A DNA stretch of 56,628 nt from an uncultured Lentisphaerota bacterium. GTDB lineage: Bacteria; Verrucomicrobiota; Lentisphaeria; Oligosphaerales; CAITYL01. The notes beneath the pieces are model-generated. The model did no database searches. It worked only from the letters and a program-made list of their open reading frames with translations, and was not told where the DNA came from. Location of the stretch: positions 1 through 56,628 of the forward strand of contig CAITSE010000162.1 in the NCBI GenBank assembly GCA_903894975.1, in the 5' to 3' direction. Of this stretch, positions 21,268 to 37,335 are shown piece after piece (the stretch's first letter is position 1; every line of letters starts with the position of its first letter). The translations under genes and the position numbers were made by a program.

Positions 21268-21415
21268 ACGGTTTTTAACCGCTGACGAACGCTAACGGGC
21301 CGCTAAAGAAGGTAAATAAAGTTCGGATCCATTAGCGGGCGTTAAACGCCTGGTGTAGTGTCCGTTAACTAACTGCACACATTCTCCGGTCCGCCTTTTC
21401 CACGCCAGGATGTTC

Positions 21416-21707
21416 CATCCCGGAGGGATGCCAGCCGGTAGCCGGTGGTTGAGCGAGGCCCGGCGAGCGACACCACCGGTTTGGGCGTCCCTCCGGCGAA
21501 TGCACCCCGAAGGGGTGCCAGCCAGCCCCATGACGCCCGCTCACGCCATCACGACCATGCCCCCGAGGTCGCTGGCACCCCTGCCGGGGTGCTGACATTC
21601 TCCGTCCCATGACCCCGGTGGTGTCGCTGCGCTCAACCACCGGCTACAGGCTGTGACACCTCCGGCGTCCTCCACCACCGAATACCGGCGGTGACACCTC
21701 CGGTGTC
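21416..21707. repeat. REPIN-like nested palindrome (TAGCCGGTGGTTGAGCG / CGCTCAACCACCGGCTA), copy 1
   Basis: 17-bp inverted arms, internal GCACCCC..GGGGTGC hairpins; second copy at 33576-33750. Confidence 0.85.
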
Positions 21708-21937
21708 CATCCCCCAGGAGCATAAATGGAGAATCACCCTCTTTCACCCGTCCCTTTGCGTCTCTCGGTTTGGCGGGAAAAAGCGGATACGAGCCGGAGG
21801 TCGTTCATTTTTATTTAGGAGGAATCATTTGATTGTCAAATGATTACACCAAAGTCCACACGTGTGGACTTTTCCGTTTCAGCCCCCGGGCGTTCCCGTT
21901 TTCCACAACCAGCCCGGCACCCGCGCCGGAAAACTTC

Positions 21938-22528
21938 CTACTCCGCCGGCCGGCCGGCGAACTGCCATTGTTTGACGGCCTCGATGGGGTGGATGAGCAT
22001 GACGATGTTGAGGGTCAGGTTGTCGCGCACCCAGAGGAGCGTGCCGACTTCCATGAGGACAATGGCGGCAACCGTGGCCCAGAACCGCGCGCGCCAGGCG
22101 ACGCAGAATCCAATGGCCACCATCACAATGTCGCTCAGGGAATTGAGGACGCTGTCGCCGACATATCCGAGGGCAATGGTCGCCTCCCGGTAGCGGTTGA
22201 TGATGAGCGGCGAGTTTTCCAGGAGTTCCCAGCCGGCTTCCAGAAACAGGGCGCCGACGAAGCGCCAGCGCATCGGCAGCTTCCGCGCCGCCAGCCACAG
22301 GAACGCGTAAAAAAGCATGCCGTGAACGATGTGCGAGAATGAATATGGATCGGCAACCCGCTGGGATTGTTCGCGGCTCCAGATGTTTCCCTCCCACCAG
22401 CCGAACCTGCCGTCCGGTCCCAGCAGCAACCGCCCCATTCCTGATTCGACCGCCCCCGTGACGACAAAGATCGCCACACAGGCCAGGATGACCCACCGGT
22501 ACTGTTTAATCCGTGCAAGCATGATCAT
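21938..22528 (-). CDS. DUF2585 (UPF0314) membrane protein
   Basis: SQRVADPYSFSHIVHG, WELLENSPLIINRYR, GYVGDSVLNSLSD, RDNLTLN. Confidence 0.9.
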   Translation of the reverse strand: MIMLARIKQYRWVILACVAIFVVTGAVESGMGRLLLGPDGRFGWWEGNIWSREQSQRVADPYSFSHIVHGMLFYAFLWLAARKLPMRWRFVGALFLEAGWELLENSPLIINRYREATIALGYVGDSVLNSLSDIVMVAIGFCVAWRARFWATVAAIVLMEVGTLLWVRDNLTLNIVMLIHPIEAVKQWQFAGRPAE

Positions 22529-22537
22529 CTTGGGTCT

Positions 22538-23161
22538 TCAGGCCAGGCGGAAGAATCCCGCGGCGGCGAGATTTTCGGCGCGGAGGGCGGCGAGGATCTG
22601 GGCCTCGCGGCGGCGCATGCGGCGCTTGGCCCGCGGGTTCAGGTCGTCTTCGCCGGCCAGGTGCAGCATGCCGTGGACGAGGTAGAGCAGCAGCTCGTCT
22701 TCCGGCGTGGTCCCGTAGCGGCGGCAGGCCTTGGCGGCGACGGCCGGGCAGACGATGAGGACGCCGGCCAGGGCGGGCTCCGCCGGGTCCGGAAATTTGA
22801 AATTTGGAATTTGAAATTTGTCCTCCGCCTCCCCCTCCGGCCCGCAACCCGCAACCCGCAACCCGCAACCCGCCTTCCCCCCGGTTTCCCATTGCGGCGG
22901 CGTCCGCGCCGCCGCAGTGTAATCAAACGCCAGGACGTCGGTGGCGCCGGCGTGGTTCAGGAACGCGCGGTTCCAGCCGGCCATGCGGCGGGGGCCGGCG
23001 AATTCGACCTGGAGTTCCCAGCCGCCGGTTGGTTCGGAGTGGGCAAGCAGGGACGGCCAGCCGGCCAGGGAGGCCAGGCGCCGGAGCAGGTCACGCAGGC
23101 GTTTCCGGCCGGGCAGGGTCAACCGCCGGCTCGACTTGGTCAGGGTCACGCGGAGTGGCAT
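22538..23161 (-). CDS. ybeY: rRNA maturation endoribonuclease YbeY with repeat-derived loop insertion
   Basis: NRAFL..TDVLAF, VHGMLHLAGEDD metal motif, MRRRE; lies downstream of HDIG gene as commonly seen. Confidence 0.88.
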   Translation of the reverse strand: MPLRVTLTKSSRRLTLPGRKRLRDLLRRLASLAGWPSLLAHSEPTGGWELQVEFAGPRRMAGWNRAFLNHAGATDVLAFDYTAAARTPPQWETGGKAGCGLRVAGCGPEGEAEDKFQIPNFKFPDPAEPALAGVLIVCPAVAAKACRRYGTTPEDELLLYLVHGMLHLAGEDDLNPRAKRRMRRREAQILAALRAENLAAAGFFRLA

Positions 23162-25493
23162 GGGCGGCCGCCTCCTTCTCTTCGTCGGATTTGGGGTACT
23201 GGATGCGGCTGTGATGCATGGTGGTGAGGGTGCGGACCAGGCTTTCGCGGACGGTGGCGAGTTCGCGGAGGGTGAGGTCGGCGTCATCGAGCTGCCCGCC
23301 CACGACCTTGCCGCGAATGATGCCGGCGACCTGGGAGCGGATCTTCTGCGGGGTCGGCTTGACCAGGGAGCGGACGGCGGCCTCGCAGGAATCGGCCAGG
23401 CTGACGATGGCGACTTCCCGGCGGGCGGGGAGGGGGCCGGGATAGCGGTAGTCATGTTCGCCGATCTCGGGATCCTCGGCGTCGCGGTCCTGGCGGGCGC
23501 GGTTGTAGAAGTAGCTGACCAGGCTGGTGCCATGGTGCTGGGCGATGGCCTCGCGGATGGGGCGCTTGAGCTTGTAGCGCAGGGCCAGTTCAAGGCCGCT
23601 TTTGACGTGGTTGAGGATGACGATGCTGCTGAGGCGCGGGCGCAGATCTTCATGGGGATTGGCACCCATGGCGTTTTCGGTGAAATACTCGGGATTGCTG
23701 AGCTTGCCGATGTCGTGGAAATAGGCGCAGACCCGGGCCAGGAGCGGGTTGGCTTCGATGGCGGCGGCCGCGTTTTCGGAAAGGGTGGCGACCATGAGCG
23801 AATGATGGTAGGTGCCGGGCGCCTCCATTTGCAGCCGGCGCAGGAGCGGATGGTTGAGGTCGCTGATTTCGATCAGGTACAGGTCGGTGGTGATGCCGAA
23901 GAGGTATTCGAAGACCGGGCTGGCAAAGGCGGCGAGCACGGCCGTGGCGACACTGGTGGCCAGGCCGACCAGGATCATGGGTCCGTAGTATTCGAAGGGA
24001 GTGCTCTGATGGAAGAGGAACATTCCGGCGGTGATGGTGAGCATCACGGCGGTGCCGATGCCGGTCCAGAGGATCTGGTAGCGTCGGCGGGCGCGGCGCA
24101 TGAGCAGGGCCGCGGCAAAAGAGGCGAGGGTGCCGGCGATTGGCAGGACCAGGGTTTCGTCGAACTGGAAGGCGGCGGCCAGGGAACCGAGGCCGCCGAC
24201 CAGGGCGGCCACGCGCAACCCCACCAGGTGTGAAAGCAGCATGGCCCCGAAAGTCAGGGGTAGGACCACCGGCAGCAGCAGGGCGACGCCGCCGGCCTGC
24301 TGGAGGAACAGGTTTCCGCCGACCCGGGTCAGCAGGATCTGCAGGATGAGTCCCGCGGCGATGGCGGTCAGGGCGCCGCCCTGCCGGGTGATTTCGGGAT
24401 GGACGGCGTGCAGCAGGTAGCTGGCGGCCAGGAGGGAAAGAAGGAACAGGGCGGCAAACACGGCCGGTTCGCGTAACTGCAAGGCCAGGTCCATGGGGCG
24501 CCCGGCCAGCAGTTCCTGATACTTGTCGATGCGCACCAGATCTTCGGCGGAGATACGTTCGCCGCGTTTGAGCAGGGCGGCGCCGGCGAGCACCGCGGTC
24601 TTGGCTTCGGGAACCAAGTTGGCGGCCTGATGCTGAGCCTGTTCTGTGGCCGTGCGGTCCAGGATCAGGTTGGGCCGGATCAGGCCGGTGAGCATTTCCT
24701 CCAGGGCGGTCTGGGTGCCGACGCCCTGGTCGGGGTACATGGCGCAGAACTCCGCCGCCACGGCGGCCGCCACCCGGCCGGAAGTCGGCAGTTCCCCGAA
24801 CGGAACCAGGCGTCGCCGGTACAATTCATCGCGGACATAGACCGAGGCGTGCCCCGAGGCGGCGCCGCCAAAATGGTTGGCCAGATCCTCGGGGGCGATC
24901 ACGCCTTTTTGGGCCGCGCTTGCCACCAACCGTTCCAGATACGGCCAGCGGCCGGGAAGTAGCGCCAAATATTCGAGGGCGCCGCGGCGGCGGGCATCCA
25001 GCGTGTTGCGGAATTCCTCCAGGGCGGGATCTGCCGGAGCTTCTGTCTCCATCCCGGGTGTGACCGCAGGAGCCGGGCGGTCGCCGCCGGCGTTCGCGGC
25101 CGCGGCGAGCAGGTCGCGGATCAGCAGGAGCCGGGTCATGGTCCGTTCCAGTTCGGCGGCGCGGATTTCAAACACCGGCGGAACTTTCCGGGACGCGGTT
25201 TCGCGCAGGCGCGTAGTCTTCTCGCTGTCCTCGTACTCGAACGGTTGTTCGGCGTAGAGGAAGCGGTCGGCGACCTGGCCGGCCACATATTTGGTGACCG
25301 GATGAAGGGGTTTGAGCAGGAAACTGGCCGCGGCAACGCCCCAGACCAGCAGGAGCAGGGTGAGGCGGAGCAGTATGAGGCGCCACCCTGACCGGATCGC
25401 CGCGGCGGCAGGATGGGGCGGCGTCGCCGTCCGGCGGCGCCGGGCGGAGCGTTCACGGCGCCAGCGCCGGAGCTTGGAAAGCAAACTATTCAT
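23091..25493 (-). CDS. 7TM-HDIG membrane phosphohydrolase (PgpH-like)
   Basis: Extracytoplasmic domain plus TM helices; EAPGTYHHS, YFHDIGK, QHHGTS, YRYPGP, LADSCEAA. Confidence 0.93.
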   Translation of the reverse strand: MNSLLSKLRRWRRERSARRRRTATPPHPAAAAIRSGWRLILLRLTLLLLVWGVAAASFLLKPLHPVTKYVAGQVADRFLYAEQPFEYEDSEKTTRLRETASRKVPPVFEIRAAELERTMTRLLLIRDLLAAAANAGGDRPAPAVTPGMETEAPADPALEEFRNTLDARRRGALEYLALLPGRWPYLERLVASAAQKGVIAPEDLANHFGGAASGHASVYVRDELYRRRLVPFGELPTSGRVAAAVAAEFCAMYPDQGVGTQTALEEMLTGLIRPNLILDRTATEQAQHQAANLVPEAKTAVLAGAALLKRGERISAEDLVRIDKYQELLAGRPMDLALQLREPAVFAALFLLSLLAASYLLHAVHPEITRQGGALTAIAAGLILQILLTRVGGNLFLQQAGGVALLLPVVLPLTFGAMLLSHLVGLRVAALVGGLGSLAAAFQFDETLVLPIAGTLASFAAALLMRRARRRYQILWTGIGTAVMLTITAGMFLFHQSTPFEYYGPMILVGLATSVATAVLAAFASPVFEYLFGITTDLYLIEISDLNHPLLRRLQMEAPGTYHHSLMVATLSENAAAAIEANPLLARVCAYFHDIGKLSNPEYFTENAMGANPHEDLRPRLSSIVILNHVKSGLELALRYKLKRPIREAIAQHHGTSLVSYFYNRARQDRDAEDPEIGEHDYRYPGPLPARREVAIVSLADSCEAAVRSLVKPTPQKIRSQVAGIIRGKVVGGQLDDADLTLRELATVRESLVRTLTTMHHSRIQYPKSDEEKEAAAHATPRDPDQVEPAVDPARPETPA

Positions 25494-27248: not shown

Positions 27249-27396
27249 GTGGATGTCTCCGTTTGCTGGTTTGGTTTTCCCAAAGATCGTTCACGGTCTG
27301 CCGGAACCGGCCTCAAGGACCGGGCGCCGGGAAGTCTCATAATTTGGCGCGGAACCGTCTGATTTCAAACGGCCGCGCTGGCGGCTGTTGCAAAGG

Positions 27397-27527
27397 GTCT
27401 GTGGTCTGTGGTCTGTGGGGAAAGACGGTGGATGTTCCCGAGGGCTCTCGGCGGCTCTCGATGGCCATCGAGAGCCCTCGAACGGTGCTACGCCGGTTCT
27501 TTCCACAGACCACAGACCACAGACCAC
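27397..27527. repeat. Inverted heptamer tracts (GTCTGTG / CACAGAC) enclosing GAGGGCTCTCG palindrome
   Basis: gtctgtggtctgtggtctgtgg ... cgagggctctcg..cgagagccctcg ... ccacagaccacagaccacagaccac; inner palindrome recurs at ~52998-53061. Confidence 0.88.
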
Positions 27528-29429: not shown

Positions 29430-29520
29430 GCGAAATTCTCCTTAGTCCGGATTATTCATGAGAGACCAGCTCGCTTCATCGCGGTCGCGACTCTGACAAA
29501 ATTTGTGTCTGAAATTGAAG

Positions 29521-29710
29521 GGTTCAGGGTTCAGGGTTCAGGGTTCAGGGTTCAGGGTTCGGGGTTCAGGGTTCGGGGAAAGCAAAGAAGGGGACGGGGC
29601 GGGGATGAAAAAGCGGCGGAACGGGAAAGACGGGAAATGGTATGGTGATGTGTCGGTCGTTCCCCTGATCACATCCTGAACCCTGAACCCCGCATCCTGA
29701 ACCCTGATCC
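29521..29710. repeat. Inverted heptamer tracts GGGTTCA / CCTGAAC between fabH and fabD
   Basis: About eight GGGTTCA/GGGTTCG units from ~29520, complementary tract at ~29674-29708. Confidence 0.9.
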
Positions 29711-37145: not shown

Positions 37146-37335
37146 GGGCATGCGCGTCAACTTAAGGAAAAAATCGAACGTCGAACATTGAACATTGAAC
37201 GTCGAAGGAAAACCCGGTCGGTTTGAACTTAGATTTATCGCATGACTTCCAATTCGACGTTGGACGTTCAATGTTCGACGTTCGCAATTAGTTGTTTTCT
37301 AGAAGATTATGGTTTTTAAGTTTACGCGCATGCCC
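37146..37335 (+). mobile_element. MITE-like element (~190 bp) with 20-bp terminal inverted repeats
   Basis: GGGCATGCGCGTCAACTTAA ... TTAAGTTTACGCGCATGCCC (one mismatch), GCA on both sides, internal inverted AACGTCG/AACATTG heptamer tracts. Confidence 0.8.

Follow-up and report, generated by a model that had tools for sequence, protein, structure and literature searches.

The ybeY gene on the minus strand of a 56,628-nucleotide stretch of DNA from an uncultured Lentisphaerota bacterium (contig CAITSE010000162.1 of assembly GCA_903894975.1; hereafter the window) was found to carry two short tandem tracts of 7-base units, CCCGCAA and G(A/G)AATTT, read in frame within a loop of the encoded protein. 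With a probability of roughly three in four, this segment is a tolerated in-frame insertion from a population of heptamer repeats that extends over the whole genome. Our inference is that the insert, translated and tolerated, is a by-product of proliferating repeats and not a device.

The heptamer insert in ybeY

The gene product was identified as YbeY by its match to Pfam family PF02130 (UPF0054; E = 6.2e-19, 68.6 bits against a cut-off of 25), in which protein residues 41-192 were aligned to positions 21-128 of the 129 in the profile, and by sequence matches to the solved YbeY chains 7y7o, 1tvi and 1xm5. A GAAGGAGG motif precedes the start codon (ATG 23161). Both tracts were read in frame, with no stop across the 207 codons, and occupy the loop joining the TDVLAF strand to the GVLIVCP strand (Table 1). 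Tandem Repeats Finder (TRF) returned 100% matches and a score of 66 for the CCCGCAA tract, and 90% matches and a score of 51 for the G(A/G)AATTT tract, which is imperfect. By length of perfect period-7 run the CCCGCAA tract ranks second among the 49 arrays located inside genes of this genome, for which the median is 19 bases. Within genes the GAAATTT unit can sit only in the orientation seen in ybeY, since its reading on the plus strand gives TGA.

From D80 to G131 the loop measures 51 residues and is the longest seen, the 51 homologues having a median of 12 and none more than 42; this loop thus tolerates changes of length in other lineages. An earlier reading made from the letters of the window and a list of its open reading frames (the sequence-only reading) had described the loop as unusually long, and had located the two tracts and their peptides with the frame intact; these descriptions were borne out by the homologue comparison, TRF and codon mapping. 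Its further point, that a change of one unit would shift the frame ahead of the His motif, holds by arithmetic, the tracts lying 5' of H163-x3-H167.

Structure prediction by AlphaFold from the single sequence was too poor to use (predicted local distance difference test score, pLDDT, of 47.8), and a model built by AlphaFold2 from a 52-sequence alignment was used in its place (mean pLDDT 88.4, predicted template modelling score 0.85). The best Foldseek matches of this model were 1oz9, 7y7o and 1xm5, each with a probability of 1.00 and template modelling scores by target of 0.66-0.73. In the model the insert, flanked by strands 76-80 and 130-137, is coil; pLDDT was about 58-63 for residues 91-120 and above 90 in the core.

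The insert was absent from the YbeY proteins of all 19 same-family and same-order genomes aligned with MAFFT, including same-family genomes G001-G004; in the closest relatives, G003 and G001, about 15-20 residues separate the TDVLAF strand from the next strand. It was likewise absent from all 51 homologues drawn from 5.8 billion clustered proteins, among which the insert was carried by one cluster alone, P0001, to which the window's protein belongs and which is recorded from 10 contigs; the next-best clusters P0002 (55% identity) and P0003 (48%) are without it. On this alignment check the insert is lineage-specific. The nearest named homologues, labelled 'Kiritimatiellae' or 'Kiritimatiellaeota', were 32-55% identical. 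Where the ybeY product has PEGEAED, P0002 has an acidic GLPGEDGDE, and MAFFT placed two gaps of 13 and 11 codons around it; this gives a hint, and only a hint, of two separate insertions into a loop that may already have been extended. Searches for a closer relative returned a single distant match in metagenome contigs (43% identity) and three distant matches in genome contigs, the best with 33% identity over most of the protein.

Six public sequencing runs from four studies, all lake or freshwater metagenomes each holding at least 44% of the sampled words of the window, were used in the form of Logan contigs, and the contigs of four runs were compared with the ybeY region. In run X1, which may be the source sample, contigs covered 22300-22870 and 22846-23400 with no differences, overlapping at 22846-22870. 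A contig of run X3 (22844-23307) and one of run X4, from a different study (22844-23197), both span the junction between the CCCGCAA tract and the 5' half of the gene. Since the contigs of X1, X3 and X4 agree, the junctions of the insert are reproducible. The stretches that X3, X4 and X6 leave uncovered carry no information. One X1 contig contained a joint leading from 22813 to 22846, with 22 letters on its shorter side, that most likely derives from another tract locus.

Heptamer arrays across the genome

Exact tandem repeats of at least three copies were counted over the whole assembly. Those of period 7 numbered 101, against 20, 25, 22 and 19 for periods 5, 6, 8 and 9, and two third-order Markov simulations of the genome yielded 2 and 0 exact three-copy heptamer repeats where 103 were observed. 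At a TRF score of at least 40 and at least three copies, 512 period-7 arrays were recovered, covering 18.4 kb; among non-redundant TRF arrays of all periods, 359 of 743 had period 7. The arrays fall into more than 20 unit families, including AACGTCG (142 arrays), AACCCTG (70), ACAGACC (39), AAAATCC (39) and AACGTTC (31). The ybeY tracts belong to the families AACCCGC (23 arrays, 15 of them within genes) and AAATTTC (14 arrays, 3 within genes). Arrays of 3, 4, 5, 6 and at least 7 copies numbered 102, 162, 196, 23 and 29, the low end of this series being clipped by the TRF score threshold, and the median length was 34 bases.

By comparison with called genes, 439 of the 512 arrays were intergenic, even though called genes take up about 81% of the sequence; 24 lay at gene edges and 49 lay deep inside 30 genes, that is, at least 90 bases from the start and at least 60 from the stop. 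Array-bearing gaps touched a contig end in 97 of 347 cases; the tracts are a major reason why the assembly breaks, so that arrays are probably more numerous than the count shows. Inverted pairs numbered 65 (130 arrays) and were chiefly of the AACGTCG and AACCCTG families, and an inverted partner was found for none of the 23 AACCCGC arrays and for 1 of the 14 AAATTTC arrays. Runs of the G4-plus-purine or C4-plus-pyrimidine type lay within 25 bases of 128 of the 512 arrays, as against 7% of random sites.

The 146-base region around the ybeY insert was compared with the genome by blastn. Only tract-level matches were returned, the longest of 44 bases, and no larger or discrete mobile element was found; at contigs C215, C367 and C128 the match consisted of the tract and about 10 bases of C-rich flank. 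A dispersed hairpin repeat of the AACAGAAGGCGCAAAGG...TTCTGTT type was often seen to abut heptamer tracts (Table 1). In phage-like regions (five gaps on C46, C245:48-1046 and C315:1145-2496), which hold many open reading frames without a Pfam family besides Mu Gp36 and a phage tail tube protein, the short gaps between consecutive genes are filled by single heptamer arrays; prophage DNA is thus another carrier of the tracts.

The 30 genes with internal arrays were examined for what the tracts interrupt. The Pfam scan covered 29 of them, and the tracts were mapped onto the proteins. In at least 15 of the 29, parts of one known protein flanked the tract or the tract split a domain match (Table 1); a GyrA/ParC-type protein is a further carrier. 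For MnmE and Lon, the segment with the tracts is absent from the matches in the nearest relatives, or shorter there. The tract in mutL is the longest intragenic one, and a near-identical 11-unit tract was seen in a peptidase-U32/DUF3656 gene (C342:987-1066). On C215 a single frame of 1100 codons (21406-24708) carries MurC, MurB and Ddl domains, with AACCCGC tracts at the MurC/MurB junction and within the MurB FAD-binding domain; it is either a triple fusion or a set of adjoining genes read through by way of stop-free tracts.

The sense strand of the intragenic arrays was usually the C-rich one: 13 against 2 for AACCCGC, 7 against 2 for ACAGACC and 5 against 0 for AAAATCC. The encoded peptides are for this reason mostly rich in Pro, Thr, Gln and Asn (NPQPATR, PTDHRPQTT, IQNPKSK). 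GGGTTGC served as the sense strand in ybeY and Mfd only, 2 of the 15 intragenic AACCCGC arrays. Families also differed in location: 15 of 23 AACCCGC arrays lay in genes, as against none of the 142 of AACGTCG, a unit that is stop-free on both strands.

Split genes would be expected in number if frame were of no consequence to intragenic tracts. Genes split by an out-of-frame tract were sought among the 183 same-strand array-bearing gaps, 27 of which measured at most 130 bases and were scanned on both sides. The 14 pairs with a Pfam match on both sides were informative, and none of the 14 shared a family; they were ordinary neighbours, such as RuvA/RuvB, a sigma and anti-sigma pair, and an ABC ATPase and permease. 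This partial test agrees with the idea that survival is confined to in-frame copies, an idea that implies translation of the intragenic tracts. Array length modulo 3 was distributed as 18/16/15 inside genes and 169/149/145 outside; with no bias in either place, this measure is uninformative on selection for frame.

Three-unit runs of GGGTTCA were counted in 41 genomes of the order. They were most frequent in this genome (G000, 102) and in two members of other families, G021 (137) and G008 (34), with 1-4 occurrences in four further genomes; none was found in 34 of the 41, same-family G001, G002 and G004 included. Among the genomes of the order that were searched, GGGTTGC x3 was found in G000 alone. 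Four-unit GGGTTCA was present in 4 of 200 further genomes of the phylum, taken as an even sample (G232, 7; G185, 4; G099, 1; G130, 1). A control unit read backwards, CGTTGGG x3, gave 15 matches in G027, a genome of the same order; heptamer tracts built of yet different units are thus present elsewhere in the order.

Within the window itself, the sequence-only reading had noted heptamer tracts of other sequences between genes, and TRF agreed, returning about 20 period-7 rows besides those in ybeY. Inverted CGAACGT/TTCGACG pairs were seen at 37173-37284, 50554-50678, 51828-51930 and 54777-54893, with arms of about 35 bases framed by an A-run and, opposite it, a T-run, and with a pattern of variant units common to the copies. 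They look like a dispersed hairpin resembling a bidirectional terminator, its stem built of heptamers. Heptamer arrays form both ends of the contig (1-18 and 56393-56611).

On the minus strand the gene order is a 7TM-HD receptor gene, ybeY and a DUF2585 gene. The stop of the 7TM-HD gene (23091) falls 71 bases within ybeY as called from ATG 23161 (23091-23161, minus strand). The overlap seems real, since the N-terminus from 23161 aligns with relatives; otherwise the 7TM-HD gene would have a dispensable tail.

Table 1. Features of ybeY, of the window and of other tract-bearing genes; positions are those of the window unless a contig is named
Feature	Position	Strand	Description	Basis
ybeY coding sequence	22538..23161	minus	207 amino acids plus stop; start ATG 23161, stop 22538	open reading frame
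Metal-binding motif HGMLHLAGEDD	22643..22675	minus	H163, H167, D173; downstream of insert	codon arithmetic, alignment
Lineage-specific insert, approximate extent	22793..22894	minus	residues ~90-123; boundaries approximate	MAFFT alignment gaps, pLDDT
CCCGCAA x4.7 tract	22841..22873	minus	perfect 33-base run; coding strand GGGTTGC; encodes AGCGLRVAGCG, residues 97-107	TRF, codon map
Linker	22821..22840	minus	20 bases, purine-rich on coding strand; encodes PEGEAE(D)	sequence
G(A/G)AATTT x4.1 tract	22792..22820	minus	coding strand AAATTTC; encodes KFQIPNFKF, residues 115-123	TRF, codon map
Period-7 rows, examples	27396/27503, 29519/29675, 37173/37253, 50554/50639, 51828/51892, 54777/54855, 56393-56611			TRF
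Inverted pair GGTCTGT x3.3 + CCACAGA x3.6	27396..27527	none	intergenic	
Inverted pair AGGGTTC x8.6 + CCTGAAC x4.7	29519..29707	none	intergenic	
Inverted pair CGAACGT/TTCGACG	51828..51930	none	A-run and T-run at flanks; commonest family, hairpin element	
CAGGGTT-type array	56393..56611	none	~30 units, at contig end	
AACAGAAGGCGCAAAGG...TTCTGTT-type hairpin repeat, copies	C128:6520-6600, C225:4723-4800, C292:541-620, C276:5500-5560; window 1258-1285, 50079-50106			
Mfd			three arrays, between UvrB-interaction and RID domains	Pfam
MnmE			two arrays after G domain	Pfam
HrpB			one tract	Pfam
MutL	C188:2272-2348		CCACAGA x11.3, 77 bases, interdomain linker, residues ~404-429	
HypF			tracts within Kae1-like domain	Pfam
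Lon			tract between lid and protease domains	Pfam
AcrB			one tract	Pfam
P-type ATPase			tract within A domain	Pfam
E2 acyltransferase			tracts in both linkers	Pfam
RsmB			one tract	Pfam
Radical-SAM protein			four arrays	Pfam
Mannitol dehydrogenase, NirA, CusB-like protein, MurB			tracts in each	Pfam

Weighing of the explanations

If the segment is a tolerated insertion, ybeY would have gained two short heptamer tracts with a purine-rich linker, adding about 34 codons, and the tracts would be members of the population of about 512 arrays, most of which have 4-5 units (about 30-39 bases) and are intergenic. The insert would have been kept because the frame is preserved, the orientation is stop-free and its position is on the surface, away from the catalytic H-x3-H. 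The ribosome would read through the tracts, and the product is probably a working YbeY that has gained a floppy loop. Slippage and copying between tract loci are the candidate origins of the tracts. Repeat invasion tolerated in a conserved nuclease, as the sequence-only reading had proposed, is supported by an insert that is lineage-specific and forms a low-confidence loop in a confident model, and is further backed by the same tract families genome-wide and inside at least 15 other conserved proteins.

Several points weigh against this explanation. The gene calls are crude, having been made with a home-made rough caller based on codon log-odds (3134 genes, 80.7% of the genome). No Pfam match was found for 3 of the 29 scanned frames, and a few long ones (MurC-MurB-Ddl, Ddl-GNAT) may represent adjacent genes run into one frame. 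The test for split genes was limited to the gaps of at most 130 bases, and in 13 of its 27 pairs at least one neighbour was without a Pfam match. The insert is perhaps not neutral, since with the rarer, G-rich sense orientation the peptide is rich in Cys and Gly and the mRNA contains a G3N4 run. The perfect 33-base CCCGCAA run would equally suit a young or a slippage-prone tract; it was bridged by no contig of the four runs compared, and its unit number accordingly rests on the original assembly. Lastly, the check for a second ybeY called for by the sequence-only reading found PF02130 matched only once in the assembly, which is 89% complete, so that a second copy free of the insert may still exist.

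A wider explanation, speculative and unlikely on balance, is that an active, horizontally acquired process writes size-limited heptamer tracts of about 30-39 bases into this genome and into scattered lineages of the order and phylum, conserved genes included. In-frame, stop-free copies would survive as loops with a period of seven residues, such as the Pro/Thr/Gln/Asn-rich peptides noted above, and ybeY would bear one of the freshest marks. Passive slippage alone would hardly account for three observations: the sharp drop in array number past five units, the occurrence of GGGTTCA in distant genomes and not in the nearest relatives, and the recurrence of tract-plus-linker modules.

It is improbable that the segment acts as a nucleic-acid regulator, in which a G-quadruplex or hairpin, formed by the GGGUUGC run of the mRNA or by its self-complementary AAAUUU run, would slow translation or mark the transcript, the peptide being incidental. 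The sense strand does carry five G3 runs with 4-base spacing, which fit the G3N1-7 quadruplex consensus, and Rehm et al. (2015; PMC4692102) describe G-rich heptamers of Xanthomonas and Nostoc, with a preference for four units, that form G-quadruplexes in vitro. Motifs of the G3N1-7 type within called genes were on the sense strand in 99 cases, the ybeY tract among this minority, against 330 antisense; another 331 were intergenic. Folding, in contrast, lent the regulator no support. For the 131-base region 22775-22905 the sense strand gave a z of 0.83, with 161 of 200 shuffles folding at least as well, and with the quadruplex option of ViennaRNA the tract alone preferred a hairpin (-17.5 kcal/mol). 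The GAAATTT tract is incapable of a G3 quadruplex. No Rfam family reached its gathering score over 22300-23400; the sole hit, sX7 (20.1 bits against a gathering score of 55, E = 0.29), was taken as chance. The suggestion of an RNA-level element in the sequence-only reading therefore found no support in fold or family.

The same reading had raised a phase-variable switch. At such a contingency locus, slipped-strand mispairing would alter the number of 7-base units, shift the frame before H-x3-H and so turn YbeY off and on in some members of the population. This is unlikely, and the chance left to it is slim. The unit length is not a multiple of three, the tracts (codons 97-123) lie 5' of H163 and H167, and the CCCGCAA tract is a perfect 33-base run, all of which speaks for a switch. 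The neuO gene of Escherichia coli K1, a phage-borne capsule-modifying gene that reportedly varies in phase through long, variable heptanucleotide tracts, would be a coding precedent. Like neuO, ybeY has 7-base units in coding sequence, the number of which sets the frame; unlike neuO, it is a housekeeping gene and has only 4-5 units, and its GAAATTT tract is imperfect. Contingency loci are typically surface or restriction genes, a class to which carriers such as Mfd, MnmE, Lon and the GyrA/ParC-type protein do not belong; like tracts occur in about 30 genes, mostly housekeeping and several of them probably essential. No frame-broken gene was found among the 14 informative flanking pairs, and no unit-number variant in the contigs of the four runs, which drop rare variants and do not span the CCCGCAA tract.

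That the insert has inactivated YbeY, leaving a decaying gene whose frame is open by chance, is very improbable. The observation in its favour is that the third His of the canonical H-x3-H-x5-H is here Asp (D173), and no second ybeY was found in the incomplete assembly. Asp is, however, the majority residue at this position, with a share of at least 90% in the alignment of 52 homologues; as far as the alignment allows, D173 seems to be a variant typical of the clade, not decay or a loss of the motif. In some relatives a His was seen one residue past this position (GEDDH, GYRDH). No variation is seen at H163, G164 or H167, and this YbeY retains each of the eight invariant columns of the 52-sequence alignment (the query being counted in that invariance). 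The core of the model is confident, no stop or shift interrupts the 207 codons, and ybeY keeps its place behind the 7TM-HD gene.

An assembly artefact, in which the assembler stitched a repeat-rich segment into ybeY, is scarcely credible: the bin is fragmented (376 contigs), heptamer tracts do break the assembly and the longer ybeY tract is unspanned, but the segments on either side belong to a single YbeY and remain in frame across the insert, in X1 the 3' half, the GAAATTT tract, the linker and part of the CCCGCAA tract lie on one contig and a second continues from that tract into the 5' half, the right-hand junction is the same in X3 and in the independent X4, and the identical protein cluster is recorded on 10 contigs.

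Comparison with known repeats, and significance

The G-rich heptamer repeats of Xanthomonas and Nostoc (GGGAATC and GGGGA(C/T)T) were described by Rehm et al. (2015; PMC4692102) as in excess in non-coding DNA and with a preference for four units. As there, the units here are of 7 bases, spread genome-wide and over-represented in non-coding DNA; the number of units is small, about four in those genomes and 4-5 here (162 and 196 arrays, against 23 with six); and in both cases G3 runs fit the quadruplex consensus (here in the GGGTTNN families) and tandemly inverted pairs occur. The present arrays differ in lying deep in 30 called genes in 49 cases, mostly in genes for conserved enzymes, in their many unrelated units (GGGTTCA, GGTCTGT, GGATTTT, GAAATTT, CGAACGT and others), several of which cannot form G3 quadruplexes, and in their host, a bacterium of the Planctomycetes-Verrucomicrobia-Chlamydiae (PVC) group, to judge by how its nearest named homologues are labelled.

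Direct repeats of the heptamer TAACTGA were described in marine Beggiatoaceae, cyanobacteria and Bacteroidetes, with intragenic copies mostly at protein ends or in hypothetical proteins (MacGregor 2015; PMC4679880). Those repeats, of 2-6 copies, are likewise direct and mostly intergenic, and the patchy spread common to both systems suggests horizontal transfer without a known vehicle. One orientation of the TAACTGA repeats gives stops in every frame, and the other orientation alone can sit in genes, as for GAAATTT here. Unlike them, the intragenic cases here lie in internal loops and linkers of well-known proteins, and more than 20 units are represented where a single unit dominates the TAACTGA system.

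Three short tandemly repeated repetitive (STRR) heptanucleotides of Calothrix PCC 7601 are mentioned by Rehm et al. (PMC4692102). They resemble the present case in that several tandem heptanucleotide families are dispersed over a genome, and differ in phylum and in units. The literature searched held no report of a systematic in-frame invasion of protein genes by STRR sequences. Cyanobacterial STRR sequences also occur inside the RNase P RNA gene.

Rickettsia palindromic elements, reviewed in PMC10969869, are discrete palindromes of about 150 bp that encode a conserved peptide and lie in frame in 44 genes of R. conorii. Common to both systems are dispersed repeats in frame in dozens of unrelated housekeeping genes (about 30 here) and insert positions judged compatible with fold and function. 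The tracts described here are tandem and of 21-40 bases, not palindromes of about 150 bp; matches of the ybeY insert elsewhere in the genome did not exceed 44 bases, and no AACCCGC array has an inverted partner.

In the literature searched, no heptamer tandem tracts were described in frame in many conserved genes, and none at all for PVC-group bacteria. Heptamer populations as such were known already, in cyanobacteria, Xanthomonas and Beggiatoaceae, where they are described as avoiding coding DNA; here such repeats have gone in frame into about 30 genes, mostly for conserved enzymes, of a PVC-group freshwater bacterium. The genome-wide picture is more interesting than ybeY alone. It offers a natural experiment on which protein loops accept insertions, and a set of dated insertion events for asking how such tracts arise. 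For annotation it is a warning that low-complexity loops in these lineages can be repeats at the DNA level and not selected features of the protein. Any change in unit number would knock out a core gene, which makes these loci a place to test the mutation rate of the tracts; among them is mutL, with 11 units, where a slip of one unit would disable mismatch repair and the tract may thus be a mutator switch.

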